A stretch of 64,000 nt of DNA, taken from the NCBI GenBank assembly GCA_963848135.1, contig CAWKCK010000018.1, forward strand, positions 386,938-450,937, written 5' to 3'. How positions within the stretch are numbered: position 1 is the first letter of the stretch; each line of letters starts with the position of its first letter. Below, piece after piece: positions 54,782 to 61,089 of the stretch. Source of the stretch: an uncultured delta proteobacterium. GTDB lineage: Bacteria > Desulfobacterota > Desulfobacteria > Desulfobacterales > SG8-13. Both the position numbers and the translations under genes were made by a program. The notes beneath the pieces were generated by a model. The model made no database searches. It saw nothing but the letters and a program-made list of their open reading frames with translations, and was not told the origin of the DNA.

Positions 54782-55132
54782 ATTTTCTCAGAACCCTTGA
54801 CTTATGGGTTTCAGGAATCTCTTTGAAAAAATCTTTCATTTTTTCAGATGAGCAGATCGGATTTCACAGGAAAACACATCAGTAAAATATTCATACAACT
54901 TGCCACTGTACGACATAAAAAGGTAATTGACTGAAAGCGTTACAGAGGTCATTATCTGCCTGTTATTTCTGCAAAAAACGAAAGGAGGCAGTGATGAACC
55001 TCGAACACGTTTCCGCAGAAACCCAGACCGATCAACGCTGTCCTAATTGCCAGTTAATGGCACAGCAAATCTGAGAAAATGGGGTGACACTCCCGAGTGT
55101 AAAAACCTATTACACAGAAAGGAGTGAGACCC

Positions 55133-56944
55133 ATGGCAAAGAAAAAGAAGAACCGTTCGGCCGGGGGGAAGAAAGCCACCCGGACCTGGGCCTATCCGGT
55201 TGAGTTCCGAGTCCGGATCGTTAAACTCTTCATGGAGGAGGGCTACAGCGCCTCGCTGATCAGTGAACAGCTCGGCATAAGCCATCATTCGATCCGCCGC
55301 TGGGTCAATGCGTACCGGCAGGGCGGTGTCCAGGGATTGGAGCCCAAGCCTCGCCCAGGAAGTAAATCCAGCGTAAAGCCTGAGGTCCGGCGGCGAATGG
55401 TGGCGGTCAAGAAGGCGCACCCGGAATACGGACCGCGACGAATCGCCGACGTCCTCAAACGGTTTTTCCTTATCCCTGCCAGCCAATCAACTGTCCATCG
55501 AACGCTGTCCGACAATGGATTGGTCAGCAAGGCCAAGCGCAAACCGGTAAAGAATCCTTCCAAGCCCAGGTTTTTCGAGCGCTCCCGTCCCAACCAGCTG
55601 TGGCAGAGCGACATCATGTCCTTCCGGCTGGCCGGACGCAACGCCTACCTGATCGGCTTCATGGACGATTACAGCCGCTACATCACCGCCCTGGGATTGT
55701 ACCGCAGCCAGACGGCCGCCCATGTGCTGGAGACCTATCGCCGGGGTATTGCCGAATACGGTGTGCCCAGGGAGATGCTCACCGACAACGGCCGCCAGTA
55801 CACCAACTGGCGGGGCAAGACGCGCTTCGAGCGGGAGATGAAAAAGGACCGTGTCAAGCATATCCGTTCGCGTCCCCACCATCCCATGACCCTGGGAAAG
55901 ATCGAGCGTTTCTGGAAATCGATCCTGGGCGAGTTCCTCCAGCGGGCCCAGTTCGACAGCTTCGAGCAGGCGGTGGAGCGAACTAATTTTTGGATCAAAT
56001 ATTACAATCACCGACGCCCTCACCAGGGTATCGGCGGCCTGTGCCCGGCCGACCGATTCTTCGAAATCGCCCACGAGCTGAAGAAGACCCTGCAGCGCGG
56101 CGTCGAGGAAAACGCACTCGAATTGGCGCTTCGGGGCCGCCCGGTGGACCCATTTTACATGGTCGGTCGCATGGGCGGCCAATCGGTGGTCATCCGTGCC
56201 GAAAAGGGCAAGGTCAGGATGCTGGTGGACGAGGCCAGCCACAAAAAAGAACTTGTGTACGACGCAAGAAAGGATATAGACCATGAAGACAAGCCAACGA
56301 ACCCGCAGAGTATTCGACCCGCAGCAGAAAATAACGGCCGTTTTGTCGATCTGGAGCGAGCGGCGCACCAGCGCCCAGGTTTGCCAGGAACTGGAGATCG
56401 AGGGCATGCTCAAGGCCCTGGACCCAAAGCAGAAGGACCCGCTGCCGCCGATCAACCAGCGGTTGTCCCGGCTGATCGCAAAGAAGCTGAACGATCCGGG
56501 CGGCAAACTGGAAAAACGTCTCCAATCCATCCAGAAGGCAGCGTCGGCCGGATAGGCGAGGAAGCCTATGGCAAAGCAACCATCGAATCAGCAAATGGCG
56601 CGGCTCAGGGCCGAGATGATCATGAAGGTCCGCTGCGGCCTGCTTACCGCCCGCCAGGCCGCCGATCGGCTGGGCGTGTCTCGCAAGACGTTCTACAAGT
56701 GGGAGACGCGGGGACTGTCCGCCCTTCTGGACAGTGTGACCGACCAGCCTCCCGGCCGCCCGTCTCATCCGTCGGACGACCATCGCCAATGGCTGGAGAA
56801 GCAGCTCCAGGACGCCAACCGGCAGATCGAACTGCTGAACCACAAAATGGCGCTGAAGGATGTGCTGATGGATTTGAAGCTTCCCCAAACCGGCAGCGAC
56901 CGGACGAAAAAAAAATGAACGCATCCGACAGGCGGTGGCCATGA
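55133..56944 (+). CDS. IS481-like DDE transposase (C-terminal ~190 aa probably spurious run-on)
   Basis: HTH; LWQSD, LTDNGRQY, GKIERFW, YYNHRRPHQGI; tail is low-complexity and overlaps two other ORFs. Confidence 0.9.
   Translation: MAKKKKNRSAGGKKATRTWAYPVEFRVRIVKLFMEEGYSASLISEQLGISHHSIRRWVNAYRQGGVQGLEPKPRPGSKSSVKPEVRRRMVAVKKAHPEYGPRRIADVLKRFFLIPASQSTVHRTLSDNGLVSKAKRKPVKNPSKPRFFERSRPNQLWQSDIMSFRLAGRNAYLIGFMDDYSRYITALGLYRSQTAAHVLETYRRGIAEYGVPREMLTDNGRQYTNWRGKTRFEREMKKDRVKHIRSRPHHPMTLGKIERFWKSILGEFLQRAQFDSFEQAVERTNFWIKYYNHRRPHQGIGGLCPADRFFEIAHELKKTLQRGVEENALELALRGRPVDPFYMVGRMGGQSVVIRAEKGKVRMLVDEASHKKELVYDARKDIDHEDKPTNPQSIRPAAENNGRFVDLERAAHQRPGLPGTGDRGHAQGPGPKAEGPAAADQPAVVPADRKEAERSGRQTGKTSPIHPEGSVGRIGEEAYGKATIESANGAAQGRDDHEGPLRPAYRPPGRRSAGRVSQDVLQVGDAGTVRPSGQCDRPASRPPVSSVGRPSPMAGEAAPGRQPADRTAEPQNGAEGCADGFEASPNRQRPDEKKMNASDRRWP
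56283..56555 (+). CDS. transposon accessory HTH-like protein (possibly internally deleted)
   Basis: RRVFDPQQKITAVL..SAQVCQELEI resembles an IS3 OrfA-type HTH start; AAGGA RBS. Confidence 0.65.
   Translation: MKTSQRTRRVFDPQQKITAVLSIWSERRTSAQVCQELEIEGMLKALDPKQKDPLPPINQRLSRLIAKKLNDPGGKLEKRLQSIQKAASAG
56568..56918 (+). CDS. HTH plus coiled-coil transposon protein (OrfA-like)
   Basis: TARQAADRLGVSRKTFYKWE..PPGRP followed by a leucine-zipper-like segment; ends in an A9 run. Confidence 0.82.
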   Translation: MAKQPSNQQMARLRAEMIMKVRCGLLTARQAADRLGVSRKTFYKWETRGLSALLDSVTDQPPGRPSHPSDDHRQWLEKQLQDANRQIELLNHKMALKDVLMDLKLPQTGSDRTKKK

Positions 56945-57981
56945 TCGAAGAGATGAAAACAGCCTATTCGCTCTCCTATACCCGCCTGGCGGACCAGGCA
57001 GGGCTGCGCTATCGAACGCTGATGCGCTGGAAACAGCGGCTTGCCAACGGCAAGGACGCCGTGGGAAAATGCGGCCCGAAGAAGGTCCGGCCGTTGAATC
57101 TCACCGAATTCAAGAAAAAGATCCAGGATTTGAATCACGGTCGCAAACGCAGCCGCGGCACCGGCAGGCTTCATGCTGATTACGGCGAATCGATCTCCCG
57201 CAGGGAATTGAACGTGCTGGTTCGCAAGGCCCGCCGTGAGACCCATCGTCATCGGAAAGCCGAAGCCTGTCACGTTCGTTGGCTACGACCGAACCTGGCC
57301 TGGGCCGTTGACGATTGCCGGAAAAGCGATACCGAAGCGACCGGAACGCTGCATCTACACAACCTGACGGACCTTTGTTCTCGCTATAAGCTGCCACCCA
57401 TCGCTTCCGGCAAGTTGCCCTGTGGAGAGGAGGTGGCCGGGCATCTGGCGCACCTGTTTGACCGCTTCGGTCCTCCTTTGTTCTGCAAGCGCGACAACGG
57501 TGGCAACCTGAACCACGCGACGGTTGACGAGGTGCTGGAAGATGCTTGGGTGATCCCGATTAACAGCCCGCAGTGCAGGCCTTCTTACAATGGTGCGATC
57601 GAACGGGCCCAACGGGAGTTCAAGGACCAAATCAAACGCTGGCAGTGGAAAGCCAATACGATGGAAGCATATTGTCTTTTGGCGGAAACTACGGCTCATG
57701 AGTTGAACCACAAACCCCGGCGCTGCCTGAATAATCGGACGGCCTACAATACCTATTTTGGAGATGGCCGCATTGGTTACACGAAACGCCAACGAAAATC
57801 CTTTTACCGATGGATACGGGACCTGGCAATCGAAATCGCGCTCCGGGCTGGCAAGCCTAAAATCACCAACGTGGAATGGAGAGTCGCTGCCAAGCAATGG
57901 CTGCTGAAAAATGATCTGGTCAAAATCGTAAGAGCGGGAAAAGTGTCACCCTATTTAAATCGAAACTTGTGCCATAATTAG
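56935..57981 (+). CDS. second DDE integrase/transposase (rve core)
   Basis: NLAWAVD, KRDNGGNL, YNGAIERAQREFK, LNHKPR. Confidence 0.87.
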   Translation: MAMIEEMKTAYSLSYTRLADQAGLRYRTLMRWKQRLANGKDAVGKCGPKKVRPLNLTEFKKKIQDLNHGRKRSRGTGRLHADYGESISRRELNVLVRKARRETHRHRKAEACHVRWLRPNLAWAVDDCRKSDTEATGTLHLHNLTDLCSRYKLPPIASGKLPCGEEVAGHLAHLFDRFGPPLFCKRDNGGNLNHATVDEVLEDAWVIPINSPQCRPSYNGAIERAQREFKDQIKRWQWKANTMEAYCLLAETTAHELNHKPRRCLNNRTAYNTYFGDGRIGYTKRQRKSFYRWIRDLAIEIALRAGKPKITNVEWRVAAKQWLLKNDLVKIVRAGKVSPYLNRNLCHN

Positions 57982-58139
57982 CGATGTCGTACAACTATGA
58001 TATCACCCAATGTGCCACGGTTTTAGCCGTCTGAGTTAAATGCTTGGTCAGCGGGAAATGTCCTTTTATAATACGGCTGGCCAAGTCACAAAATATAAAA
58101 TCTGGTTTGCCAACAGCTTCGGAAACGCATGATATAAAA

Positions 58140-58334: not shown

Positions 58335-58678
58335 TTTACTCCGCCAATTCCTTTAAAAGGGTCATTTCAAATTGCCCGTTAACAGGTATTATACAGAATC
58401 TGGTATATAAAATAGATTCTATATTAAAGAGTATCCCATATAAAAAGGGCTTCATAGAGTTTGGGGCTTTCTTGCCAAAATCTACATTAACATTTTCCTT
58501 GGATTCGTAAACAATACGTTCTGGCTATCTCAAGCAAATCGACCAGACGATAGCTCAAGGATCATAGCAGCAAGTTTCAGTTCACCCAAACGGTTGATAC
58601 GTTGGAGCTAATTTGGATAAAACAAGGACATCAGGTCTGGTAACTATCGCCTGGATGCCCTTGTTAACGGGTCTCACT

Positions 58679-60298
58679 TCACTTCACCAGCTCGATCTCA
58701 CCCGCACGCCATACCTTCGTAAAGAAGGATTCCAGCGGACTGTAGAGGCGCAGGATGGTGAACCAACCCTTGCCAGGCATCGTCTGGATCCAGTTGCCGC
58801 GTTCCACGCCTTCCGGCTGTTCGGGGCCGAAGTTGATGGTCGTGGAACCATCGGCACTCGCCACAGCGGCGGGCGAAGGATAGCTCTGGCTACCGGCGCG
58901 CGGGTAGCGCTGCGGCGTGTCGAGCATCGATCGGGACTGGTTGTCATAGACGGTGAACGACCAGAACGCTTCAGACGGGATGTCCTTCGGAAGCGTACAC
59001 TTGTAAGTCTTACCGCCGTCGAAGGGATTCATGTCCACGTCGAGGAAGCCCATCAGATACTGCGAGCCGACCTTTGGGACGCGCATGATCATGCCGGGGG
59101 AGTCCAGGGTGTAGGCGTAGTAGAAGGCGGTCCGTGAATCGAGTGTGCGCGCGCCGGTCGGCGGGAAAGGCTTGAAATAGCCATCCTTCGTTATCATCGG
59201 TGGTGGCGTCTCGAAGTTGTAGCCGCCTTCCCACAGCATGTTACCCCACATCGAATTCTCGTAGTAGAACCAATCGGGATGCATTTTAGCGAAGCGCCAG
59301 TTCAGGACGCGACCGGTGGCATTGCCGAACTTCGCCGCGTCGTTTAGAACCCTCTTCGTGTTGGTATCCGGCTTGAAGGGCTTTCCCTTGACGATGCCGA
59401 TGGCGGCAAGCTGGCCGGCGAGCTCGACGTCGTAGCTGGTGGCCGGCTCCTGCTGCACGTTCTCGTTAATCATCTCGAAGTAGGTGTAATCGCTCGGCGG
59501 GATCGTGTTGAAGACCTTGCCAGTTGCCTCGATGAACTTGGTTTCGGGAACCGGCGGATTCACTTCAAGTCGGACTTTGCCGTCCAGTGCCGTGGCAATG
59601 CTGGTACCGAAGCCACCCGGCGTATAGGGATAGACCTTCATGGTCTTTTTGATCAGCTCTACGGCTGGCTTCGGATCGTTGTCCTCCAGATAGGCACGGG
59701 CCCCGTAGAGGATCCGGTTGGTCTTCGAGTGTGCCACGTGAAAGCCGCTGTCCGGCAGTGGACCGTCGTAGCCGGGAGGCACAATCAGATACTTTCCGCC
59801 TTCGCCGCGATCGGGTCCGGGAAATCCGATGTCGATGATCCATGAGAACCACATGTCGTTGATGGTGCCCACGCTCTTCGGCGGCTGTTCGATCACCATC
59901 GGCCCCTTGGTCAGATCAAAGACCGCAAGGTAATAGACGGTGTCCGCGTTGGCGGTCAGGAAGAGCGACTTCGCATCCATCAGCTCGGAGAAGATGATGA
60001 TCGTGTTGTTGTCCTCCGCGCCGATGCTTTGGAAGCCCTTCTGTAGCGCGTAGGCCGAGGCTCCGCGAAAGCTGTTGTTATAGGCGTTCAAGCCGTTGGT
60101 AAAGATCAGGAAGTCGGCCACCTTCTTGGCGGTTTCCGGTGTCGGAGCGCCGTCGTTGAAGGTGAGCTTGCCGAGGCCGGTCTCGACCACGTCCGGGGTG
60201 CGCAGCGACTGCGGGATTGCATCGTTTGATTGGGCGGATGCGTTCGACAAGGCCAGCGCACTTACGAGCGTAGCGGCCAGTAGTGATTTTACATTCAT
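58679..60298 (-). CDS. DUF1254/DUF1214 domain-containing secreted protein
   Basis: Signal peptide; LTANADTVY, GPDRGEGGKYL, FWSFTVYD, NWIQTMPGKGWFTILRLYSP. Confidence 0.92.
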   Translation of the reverse strand: MNVKSLLAATLVSALALSNASAQSNDAIPQSLRTPDVVETGLGKLTFNDGAPTPETAKKVADFLIFTNGLNAYNNSFRGASAYALQKGFQSIGAEDNNTIIIFSELMDAKSLFLTANADTVYYLAVFDLTKGPMVIEQPPKSVGTINDMWFSWIIDIGFPGPDRGEGGKYLIVPPGYDGPLPDSGFHVAHSKTNRILYGARAYLEDNDPKPAVELIKKTMKVYPYTPGGFGTSIATALDGKVRLEVNPPVPETKFIEATGKVFNTIPPSDYTYFEMINENVQQEPATSYDVELAGQLAAIGIVKGKPFKPDTNTKRVLNDAAKFGNATGRVLNWRFAKMHPDWFYYENSMWGNMLWEGGYNFETPPPMITKDGYFKPFPPTGARTLDSRTAFYYAYTLDSPGMIMRVPKVGSQYLMGFLDVDMNPFDGGKTYKCTLPKDIPSEAFWSFTVYDNQSRSMLDTPQRYPRAGSQSYPSPAAVASADGSTTINFGPEQPEGVERGNWIQTMPGKGWFTILRLYSPLESFFTKVWRAGEIELVK

Positions 60299-61089
60299 GG
60301 TTATTTTCCTTTCAGTTATTTATGACGTTGCGATTTGCATTATGATGCGTTGCTGGTCTTGTCGCTGCTGAGTTCGTGGCCCAATCCTTGTCGGACATCG
60401 TCGGATGATTATCAAGAAGATATTTTCTTCGGATGGCGCATAATAAGTCCAATATTATTCAGATATATGCAAGGGTTTCAAAATTTAGAAACGATAGACA
60501 AACGCAAAAAGGGGGTGAGTGGGCGCTTAGATTAGCCAATATTTGGACCGAAATTTAATCCGGTGCACCCCAAGATGGGGTGGTCGGCAGGTTTGCTCGA
60601 ATATTTGTGATTACATATCAATATCACCGAAAAATCCGACCCCTAGTTTATTACCAACTATTTGAGCTATTTCAACTACTTTTGTACCGAAACTGGCGGT
60701 TATTGTAATTAAGGGCATTTTTGATCCTCCCTCAGTATTCCGAATTTTATAAAAAAATTATGTTGAATCTTTATCGTATCGAATACCATATACCCACCTT
60801 AAGACACGGGCGAAAATTATTAAATATGACATTGATTTCGTTTTCCATTCTCCGATGCGCCTTCATGCGAAATTCGCTTAGTAACTTTCCCGTTTGTATG
60901 AATGAGAAAGTAGGTGCCAGAATTACATGTAATCAATACTTGGGAAACGGTGGCTTAGTATTTGGAGAGAAAATGGTACTTGGGGCTAAAACTAGCCAAA
61001 GGCTATACTAACAGAAATTGCATCAACAGAATCGATGCGGTTCGGCTATCTCAAAGAAATCCTCCAGATGATAGCGTTGAGGCCATAGA

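Follow-up and report, generated by a model that had tools for sequence, protein, structure and literature searches.

The window analysed here is a 64-kb stretch of DNA from the genome of an uncultured delta proteobacterium. Between positions 55039 and 57993 lies an element resembling an insertion sequence (IS), in which genes for two different DDE transposases are enclosed by a single pair of TGT...ACA ends. The first is an IS481-type enzyme (open reading frame 1; ORF1) and the second is a more divergent protein (ORF4), with two small reading frames (ORF2 and ORF3) placed between them. Most of the element has a GC content of ~0.57-0.63, compared with ~0.35-0.42 in the flanking DNA. Its features are listed below, with positions in the window and the strand in brackets; HTH is helix-turn-helix.

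55039..57993 (+): whole element, 2,955 bp, TGT...ACA termini
55039..55064 (+): imperfect inverted repeat at the left end (TGTCCTAATTGCCAGTTAATGGCACA), kept in Desulfobacterales and other phyla as TGTCCTAA(T/C)...
55082..55091 (+): left subterminal motif GGGTGACACT, positions 44-53 from the left end
55133..56290 (+): ORF1 core, IS481-type DDE transposase (HTH and rve), ATG at 55133, predicted catalytic residues D160, D218 and E258
56283..56555 (+): ORF2, small HTH_Tnp_1-type protein, with a 39-bp in-frame deletion after 56390
56291..56944 (+): ORF1 tail, continuing in the same frame over ORF2 and ORF3, about 217-220 codons
56568..56918 (+): ORF3, HTH and coiled coil, OrfA-like upstream half of the second transposase, HTH_29 at E 1e-8, ending directly after the A run
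56907..56915 (+): A9 run at the ORF3/ORF4 junction, putatively slippery; a run of 6-10 A is found in 80 of 82 elements
56935..57981 (+): ORF4, second, divergent DDE transposase (HTH and RNase-H core), GTG at 56935 with an in-frame ATG at 56941; predicted catalytic residues D126, D187 and E223, numbered from the GTG
57942..57951 (-): right subterminal motif GGGTGACACT, positions 43-52 from the right end, inside the ORF4 coding sequence
57968..57993 (-): imperfect inverted repeat at the right end, reading TGTACGACATCGCTAATTATGGCACA as the reverse complement, overlapping the ORF4 stop codon

Boundaries and ends of the element

A search of the window's own genome using positions 55000-58040 found a second copy on another contig (G000:C1, locus L002). 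This is 99.9% identical to that in the window (i.e. ~3 differing positions across 2,955 bp), spans exactly 55039-57993, and is flanked by unrelated DNA on both sides. Four diverged copies from other genomes start and end on identical bases, among them three with 77-79% identity over the full length. All these copies thus have the boundaries and TGT...ACA ends that had been assigned in a preliminary description of the element, made from the sequence of the window.

That description also placed repeated motifs in register at the two ends, at positions 19-26 and ~43-53, and both are found there. The motif GGGTGACACT has only two matches in the window, one at each end of the element and mutually inverted; 0.05 would be expected by chance, and two matches were reached in none of 100 shuffled sequences. 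The 8-mer ATGGCACA occupies positions 19-26 of both ends (55057-55064 on the plus strand and 57968-57975 on the minus strand), and taken alone is not rare, with four matches in the window against 1.9 expected. In aligned copies from other phyla the sequence GGGT(G/A)ACAC (positions 43-52) is retained at both ends. The motif at positions 19-27 varies among lineages, while within one lineage it is identical at the two ends. The tips are unlike each other, the left being TGTCCTAA... and the right TGTGCGAC... or TGTACGAC... (as the reverse complement), and each is kept across lineages. At the right end the motifs double as coding sequence for the C-terminus of ORF4. The presence of two classes of motif at both ends would fit the action of two DNA-binding proteins, each acting at both ends.

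Two DDE transposase genes and the reading frames between them

ORF1 contains HTH_32, rve and rve_3 domains (Pfam). On the NCBIfam model NF033577 ('IS481 family transposase') it scores 241.1 bits, above the cut-off of 224. It also scores 168.9 bits on the IS3 model NF033516 (cut-off 160), below its own IS481 score. The triad D160, D218 and E258 is invariant in 16 ORF1 sequences. In the core of the gene 63% of third codon positions vary, compared with 14-21% at the other positions.

ORF4 gives only faint matches to rve in Pfam. It is matched by the IS3 profile with E 2e-13 and the IS481 profile with E 7e-12, corresponding to 50.4 bits on the IS3 model (well below its cut-off of 160) and only 45.5 bits on the IS481 model. 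A profile of the ORF4 family made from 125 relatives matches retroviral integrase cores with E 1e-12. An AlphaFold (AF2) model calculated from the 125-sequence alignment has an RNase-H-type integrase core with a predicted local distance difference test score (pLDDT) of 94.2, and its best matches in Foldseek are retroviral integrases, IS21 IstA and TnsB of a CRISPR-associated transposon (CAST). An earlier model from 14 sequences had a pLDDT of 51 and was discarded in favour of that from the larger alignment. D126, D187 and E223 are invariant in 125 sequences with 30-80% identity to ORF4 of the window, and on profile-profile alignment (hhalign) they fall opposite D160, D218 and E258 of ORF1. Since both triads are invariant and mutually aligned, and the modelled fold of ORF4 is integrase-like, ORF1 and ORF4 both look like active DDE enzymes, with activity predicted for each.

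The IS3 profile is covered by ORF3 at positions 3-81 and by ORF4 at positions 93-346. ORF3 terminates in AAA AAA AAA TGA (56907-56918), and the ORF4 frame is open through the A run. This junction was compared in 82 distinct elements. The run within the ORF3/ORF4 overlap comprises 6-10 A in 80 of them, and at least 7 (i.e. 7-10) in 79. Passing from ORF3 to ORF4 requires a +1 shift in 43 elements (most often with A9, 28/43) and a -1 shift in 37 (mostly A8), and two are in frame. Between the A run and the ORF4 ATG the codons of relatives change synonymously in the ORF4 frame (CGC/CGA/CGG/CGT for Arg and ATC/ATA/ATT for Ile), from which it follows that the ORF4 frame is translated from the A run onward. 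Judged by sequence, ORF3 and ORF4 are the two halves of a split gene of the OrfA/OrfB kind found in IS3 elements, meeting at the conserved A run.

One natural in-frame variant (L036 = L011 = L115) has an A8 run and encodes a single protein of 471 aa that matches positions 4-328 of the IS3 profile in one stretch. This natural fusion scores 66.3 bits on the IS3 model, again below the cut-off. A sibling copy in the same metagenome-assembled genome (MAG; L012 = L035 = L114) has A9, and the single reading frame of the A8 copy may be an error in sequencing the homopolymer, or else a naturally occurring fusion.

A fusion of ORF3 and ORF4 is the predicted product of slippage on the A run. Shifts of +1 and -1 are about equally common and a single homopolymer would serve both, so that transcriptional slippage is the likelier route. 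For IS1447, of the IS3 family, transcriptional slippage of ~16% in each direction is reported on an A9 run, 7 A being enough (PMC6211511).

The frame of ORF1 extends beyond its core. It remains open until 56944, giving 606 aa from a GTG at 55124, and its TGA (56942-56944) overlaps the ORF4 ATG as ATGA. Of the 120 best ORF1 homologue clusters, 115 are 587-636 aa long, most spanning the whole query, and the median tail in the 82 elements is 225 aa. Over ORF2 and ORF3 the ORF1 frame contains no stop codon in any of four diverged copies, whereas the third frame contains 10-12. When codons of this region were resampled synonymously, zero stops in the ORF1 frame were obtained in ≤0.06% of trials for each copy (P ≤ 0.0006). 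The ORF1 tail overprints ORF2 and, in the clade of the window, ORF3. In the overlap the third positions of the ORF2 and ORF3 frames vary at 49-52%, compared with 15-31% for the other positions, and this pattern indicates that these are the frames under protein selection there. As a guess, the tail may couple translation of the downstream genes to that of ORF1. A giant fusion of the ORF1 tail to ORF4 by -1 frameshifting on A_AAA_AAA was considered and rejected for the family as a whole, since the ORF1 frame stops at or before the A run in 66 of 82 elements; the phase does fit such a fusion in the clade of the window, where it is possible.

Alignment with three relatives shows that 13 codons of the helix-turn-helix are missing from ORF2 of the window. 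On PF01527 (cut-off 24.1) it scores 17.3 bits, against 35.5 bits for the intact homologue in L008. The two copies in the window's own genome differ at only ~3 positions, and L002 should therefore share the 39-bp deletion. That both copies should carry it suggests that ORF2 is a dispensable regulator, the order of events being unproven.

The preliminary description had recognized four reading frames. Their coordinates, the IS481-like nature of ORF1 and the divergent DDE character of ORF4 all hold, while its treatment of ORF3 as a separate small gene gives way to that of the upstream half of a split ORF3/ORF4. The two small HTH frames are as it saw them, apart from the in-frame deletion in ORF2, which it overlooked. 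It also missed the reading of ORF3 and ORF4 as one recoded gene, the overprinting of ORF2 and ORF3 by ORF1, and the lack of target-site duplication described below.

Conservation of the family and its insertion sites

Linkage of the two DDE genes was examined by reciprocal seeding. A search with ORF4 gave 105 loci (some places being fetched twice), of which 10 contained a fragment of ORF4 only and 34 had too little upstream DNA, leaving 61 that could be assessed. ORF1 of at least 300 aa lies upstream in 55 of these. The remaining six, representing four places, have a 5'-truncated ORF1, and none is without it. In the opposite direction, ORF4 lies downstream in 54 of 55 ORF1-seeded loci having at least 1,900 nt of downstream sequence, the exception being a decayed copy. 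ORF2 and ORF3 are found between the two DDE genes in constant order.

The ORF4-seeded loci come from Desulfobacterales, Nitrospirota, Terriglobia, Verrucomicrobiota, Planctomycetota, NC10, Lentisphaerota and others, and the four-gene order is also kept in Acidobacteriota. Seeding with ORF1 adds Fibrobacterota, Cloacimonadota, Sulfuricurvum and the complete genome of an isolate, Desulfosarcina widdelii PP31, that has two copies. The four genes remain linked from 80% down to ~35% identity in ORF4, and the loci examined include no case of either half standing by itself between ends of its own. Pairwise distances for ORF1 and ORF4 in 64 distinct pairs are correlated with r = 0.91, a value reached in none of 999 permutations in a Mantel test, and ORF4 evolves 1.55 times faster than ORF1. 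Conserved synteny and a comparison of the two DDE proteins were among the checks that the preliminary description had proposed, and both come out on the side of a single family. Judged from these loci, the architecture with two transposases is genuine, and it is both old and widely distributed.

The family is large, since a library clustered at 50% identity contains 1,644 representatives of ORF4 with E ≤ 0.001, 294 of which reach E ≤ 1e-30; among the 150 matches listed the relatives are mostly 330-365 aa in length. It is sparse within groups, with an ORF4 match in 4 of 201 genomes of the order to which the window belongs, and no match to ORF4 was found in a plasmid collection. Scans of the four reading frames with Pfam and NCBIfam found no AAA+ ATPase domain, as the preliminary description had stated.

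Some members have been rearranged. Three loci in D. widdelii PP31 and a Desulfobacteraceae MAG (L111, L112 and L113) are recombinant; their ORF1-3 are nearest those of the window (ORF1 distance 0.14), whereas their ORF4 is distant from that of the window (0.44) and close to ORF4 of L126 and L127. By these distances lineages of the family have exchanged a module, the breakpoint lying near the A run. In one NC10 MAG, four copies (L097, L099, L100 and L104) are enlarged by ~2.3 kb of DNA, placed either between ORF1 and ORF2 or between ORF2 and ORF3; this DNA is missing from other copies in that MAG. One contig of a delta-proteobacterial MAG has two nearby inverted copies (L018 and L019), one of which is cut inside ORF1 just upstream of ORF2; the pair may be the product of an intramolecular event.

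No target-site duplication was found at any of 35 insertions, comprising 12 analysed by script, 21 by eye and the two in the complete isolate genome. The 12 are distinct insertions with both ends present, and include the pair in the window's genome. They share 0-3 adjacent bases, which is the level expected by chance, with no longer repeat. MAG sets of 7, 4, 3, 3, 2 and 2 copies, having 98-100% identity within each set, show sharp boundaries with unrelated flanking bases, although in three sets the boundary can be placed only to within 1-4 bases. Neither of the two copies in the complete genome of D. widdelii is flanked by a duplication.

The element in the window has entered another repeated element, one encoding tyrosine recombinases in tandem, whose first gene it disrupts at around codon 16. 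The left flank (54900-55038) is the start of this repeat family, in which a protein of 362 aa is followed by a second recombinase, and which has three further copies in the genome (L003, L004 and L005). The right flank does not continue the repeat, and hence DNA was rearranged or deleted when the element inserted or afterwards. The 10-mer TGTACGACAT, found among the first bases of the repeat, is identical to the reverse complement of the element's right tip, maybe by chance. In D. widdelii the left flank of one copy (L111, 3340-3403) contains ...AAAAATGGGTAACACTCC..., which resembles the subterminal left-end motif of a related element, and this copy may have landed in the end of a relative. 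Beyond the element the window contains a second GC-rich island (0.55-0.61) at 58600-60400 in AT-rich surroundings, having one reading frame of 539 aa on the minus strand (58679-60298) with an N-terminus like that of a signal peptide.

Interpretation and comparison with known systems

We consider it probable that positions 55039-57993 are a recently active copy of a widespread family of ~3-kb IS elements, related to IS481 and IS3, in which two co-evolving DDE transposases work together on each pair of TGT...ACA ends. In the copy in the window ORF1, ORF3 and ORF4 are intact. The obligate linkage of the two genes, their co-divergence, the conserved catalytic residues and the shared end motifs all point to a single heteromeric transposase, and on balance we favour this. 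Both DDE proteins would then be present in one transpososome at both ends, with the steps of cleavage and joining divided between the ORF1 and ORF4 enzymes in the manner of TnsA and TnsB in Tn7. Such a non-symmetrical assembly would account for insertions in which the cut is not staggered. Slippage on the A run, most likely during transcription, would provide the ORF3-ORF4 fusion, and ORF2 would act as a dispensable regulator.

A more specific proposal is tentative, and we regard it as rather less likely to be right than wrong. This is that the elements form a new IS family using an obligate hetero-oligomer of two DDE enzymes, each acting at a different step or on a different strand, that joins directly opposed phosphates in the target. 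It would be the first prokaryotic rve-type DDE element to insert without target-site duplication, with the output of the two enzymes tied by the overprinted frame and slippage on the A run.

A number of points weigh against cooperation of the two enzymes and blunt insertion as set out here. Interaction between the ORF1 and ORF4 proteins, and the need for both, are inferred from sequence comparison. An empty target site was not recovered from the window's own genome, from relatives or for the flank of a multi-copy MAG, and a small target deletion or an imprecise junction would be indistinguishable from blunt insertion. The right flank in the window matched nothing useful in its own genome; for the left flank of L002 (601 nt) relatives match the first 275 nt only, short of the junction; and the flank of the multi-copy MAG copy matches only itself. 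Most copies come from MAGs, whose flanks are possibly chimeric, although the window's genome and the complete isolate genome agree in having no duplication. The ORF1 tail is also variable. Of the 82 elements, 20 have the stop of the ORF1 frame ahead of ORF3, 21 within ORF3, 25 at the A run and 16 past the ORF3 stop codon; inspection by hand of Terriglobia and NC10 lineages showed that the stop at the run is a TAA formed with its first bases. The placement differs by lineage so that the tail has no single obvious role, and a fixed ORF1-ORF4 fusion is therefore not its general purpose. When the tail was tested by shuffling in 26 distant lineages, P was below 0.001 in 8 of them and below 0.05 in 14; this test is given little weight because the region was defined by its own openness.

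It is also conceivable that only one DDE protein works, the other being a non-catalytic partner or regulator that has retained the fold, such as an inhibitor, an architectural subunit that binds the ends, or a selector of targets. IS elements often encode regulators derived from transposases, such as OrfA of the IS3 family and the Tn5 inhibitor, and the 1.55-fold faster evolution of ORF4 and its scores under every curated family cut-off could be read in this way. Yet a structural protein would be expected to lose its triad somewhere, whereas that of ORF4 is invariant in the 125 sequences down to 30% identity, and that of ORF1 likewise. We consider this explanation unlikely. Less likely still is that the two transposases are alternatives, each mobilizing the element alone under different conditions or by different routes (e.g. 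copy-out as opposed to excision). Both enzymes do appear complete, each having DNA-binding domains as well as a catalytic core, and the two conserved motifs at both ends could serve two binders. Redundant genes are usually lost in some lineages, however, and no locus that could be assessed lacks either gene, apart from truncated or decayed copies; the strict co-divergence of ORF1 and ORF4 also fits cooperation better. That the element is a composite, one IS nested in or fused to another with each having its own ends, is highly improbable. The only end-like sequence inside it, TGTACGAC at 56253, does lie just before ORF2, and the two enzymes come from different sub-lineages of the IS3/IS481 group. 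This sequence is unconserved, however, other copies having synonymous substitutions there in the ORF1 motif KELVYDARKD (GTG/GTC/GTT, TAC/TAT and GAC/GAT), and it was rejected as an internal element end. ORF1 also overlaps ORF2 and ORF3 in another frame, and the arrangement is kept over many phyla, with neither half found by itself between its own ends in the loci examined. The preliminary description had found no internal ends and had argued against a simple nested insertion; we concur with both.

The two-transposase family is apparently undescribed. We found no description of a two-DDE element of such a kind in the full-text literature, in agreement with the earlier view that the class is poorly described; ISfinder lay outside the search, so the family may already have a name. 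In the databases searched most entries for ORF4 bear the label 'hypothetical protein' and those for ORF1 'IS481 family transposase', and these elements of ~3 kb would thus be easily missed or assigned the wrong size. DDE transposases are generally understood as homo-oligomers, in which two-fold symmetry fixes the staggered cut and hence the target duplication. By contrast, in this family two distinct DDE enzymes are never separated, and a target duplication is seen at none of the 35 insertions. If the family is confirmed, the elements would provide a natural system in which to study how two RNase-H-type active sites can share the work, what determines the stagger of strand transfer, and how the amounts of two enzymes are balanced by overlapping frames and slippage.

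Several known systems share some of these properties. A working analogy, and only that, is with TnsA and TnsB of Tn7, where two different catalytic proteins act on one pair of TGT...ACA ends with repeated subterminal sites, as ORF1 and ORF4 would here. TnsA has a restriction-endonuclease-like fold, Tn7 requires the AAA+ protein TnsC, and it generates 5-bp duplications. In the present element both proteins have the RNase-H DDE fold, and neither a TnsA-type endonuclease nor an AAA+ domain was found in the scans of the four reading frames. It likewise differs from IS21, where the DDE protein IstA is paired with the AAA+ protein IstB, in having no ATPase, and IstA is only a distant structural match. 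Insertion without target-site duplication is reported for Spy elements, which are DDE transposons related to PIF/IS5 (PMC4122938). Spy elements are eukaryotic, have a single transposase and belong to another superfamily.

The closest relationships are with the IS3 and IS481 families. IS3 elements have one transposase gene and generate short target duplications. The present element shares with IS3 the co-linearity of ORF3-ORF4 with the IS3 transposase profile and, with IS1447, an A run at the junction (A7-A10 in this family), but its ORF3-4 scores only 50-66 bits against a cut-off of 160, and the split gene is here the second enzyme of the element. The members of the IS481 family are single-gene elements of ~1 kb. 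With these the element shares an ORF1 that is above the IS481 model cut-off, an HTH and rve architecture, and TG(T)...(A)CA termini with imperfect inverted repeats. IS481 target duplications are of 2-15 bp, mostly 6 bp (PMC10045372). The element in the window differs in its length of 2,955 bp, its four reading frames and its two DDE genes, as do all the relatives examined, and in the lack of duplication. In gene content and target duplication, the element fails the defining features of both the IS481 and the IS3 families.

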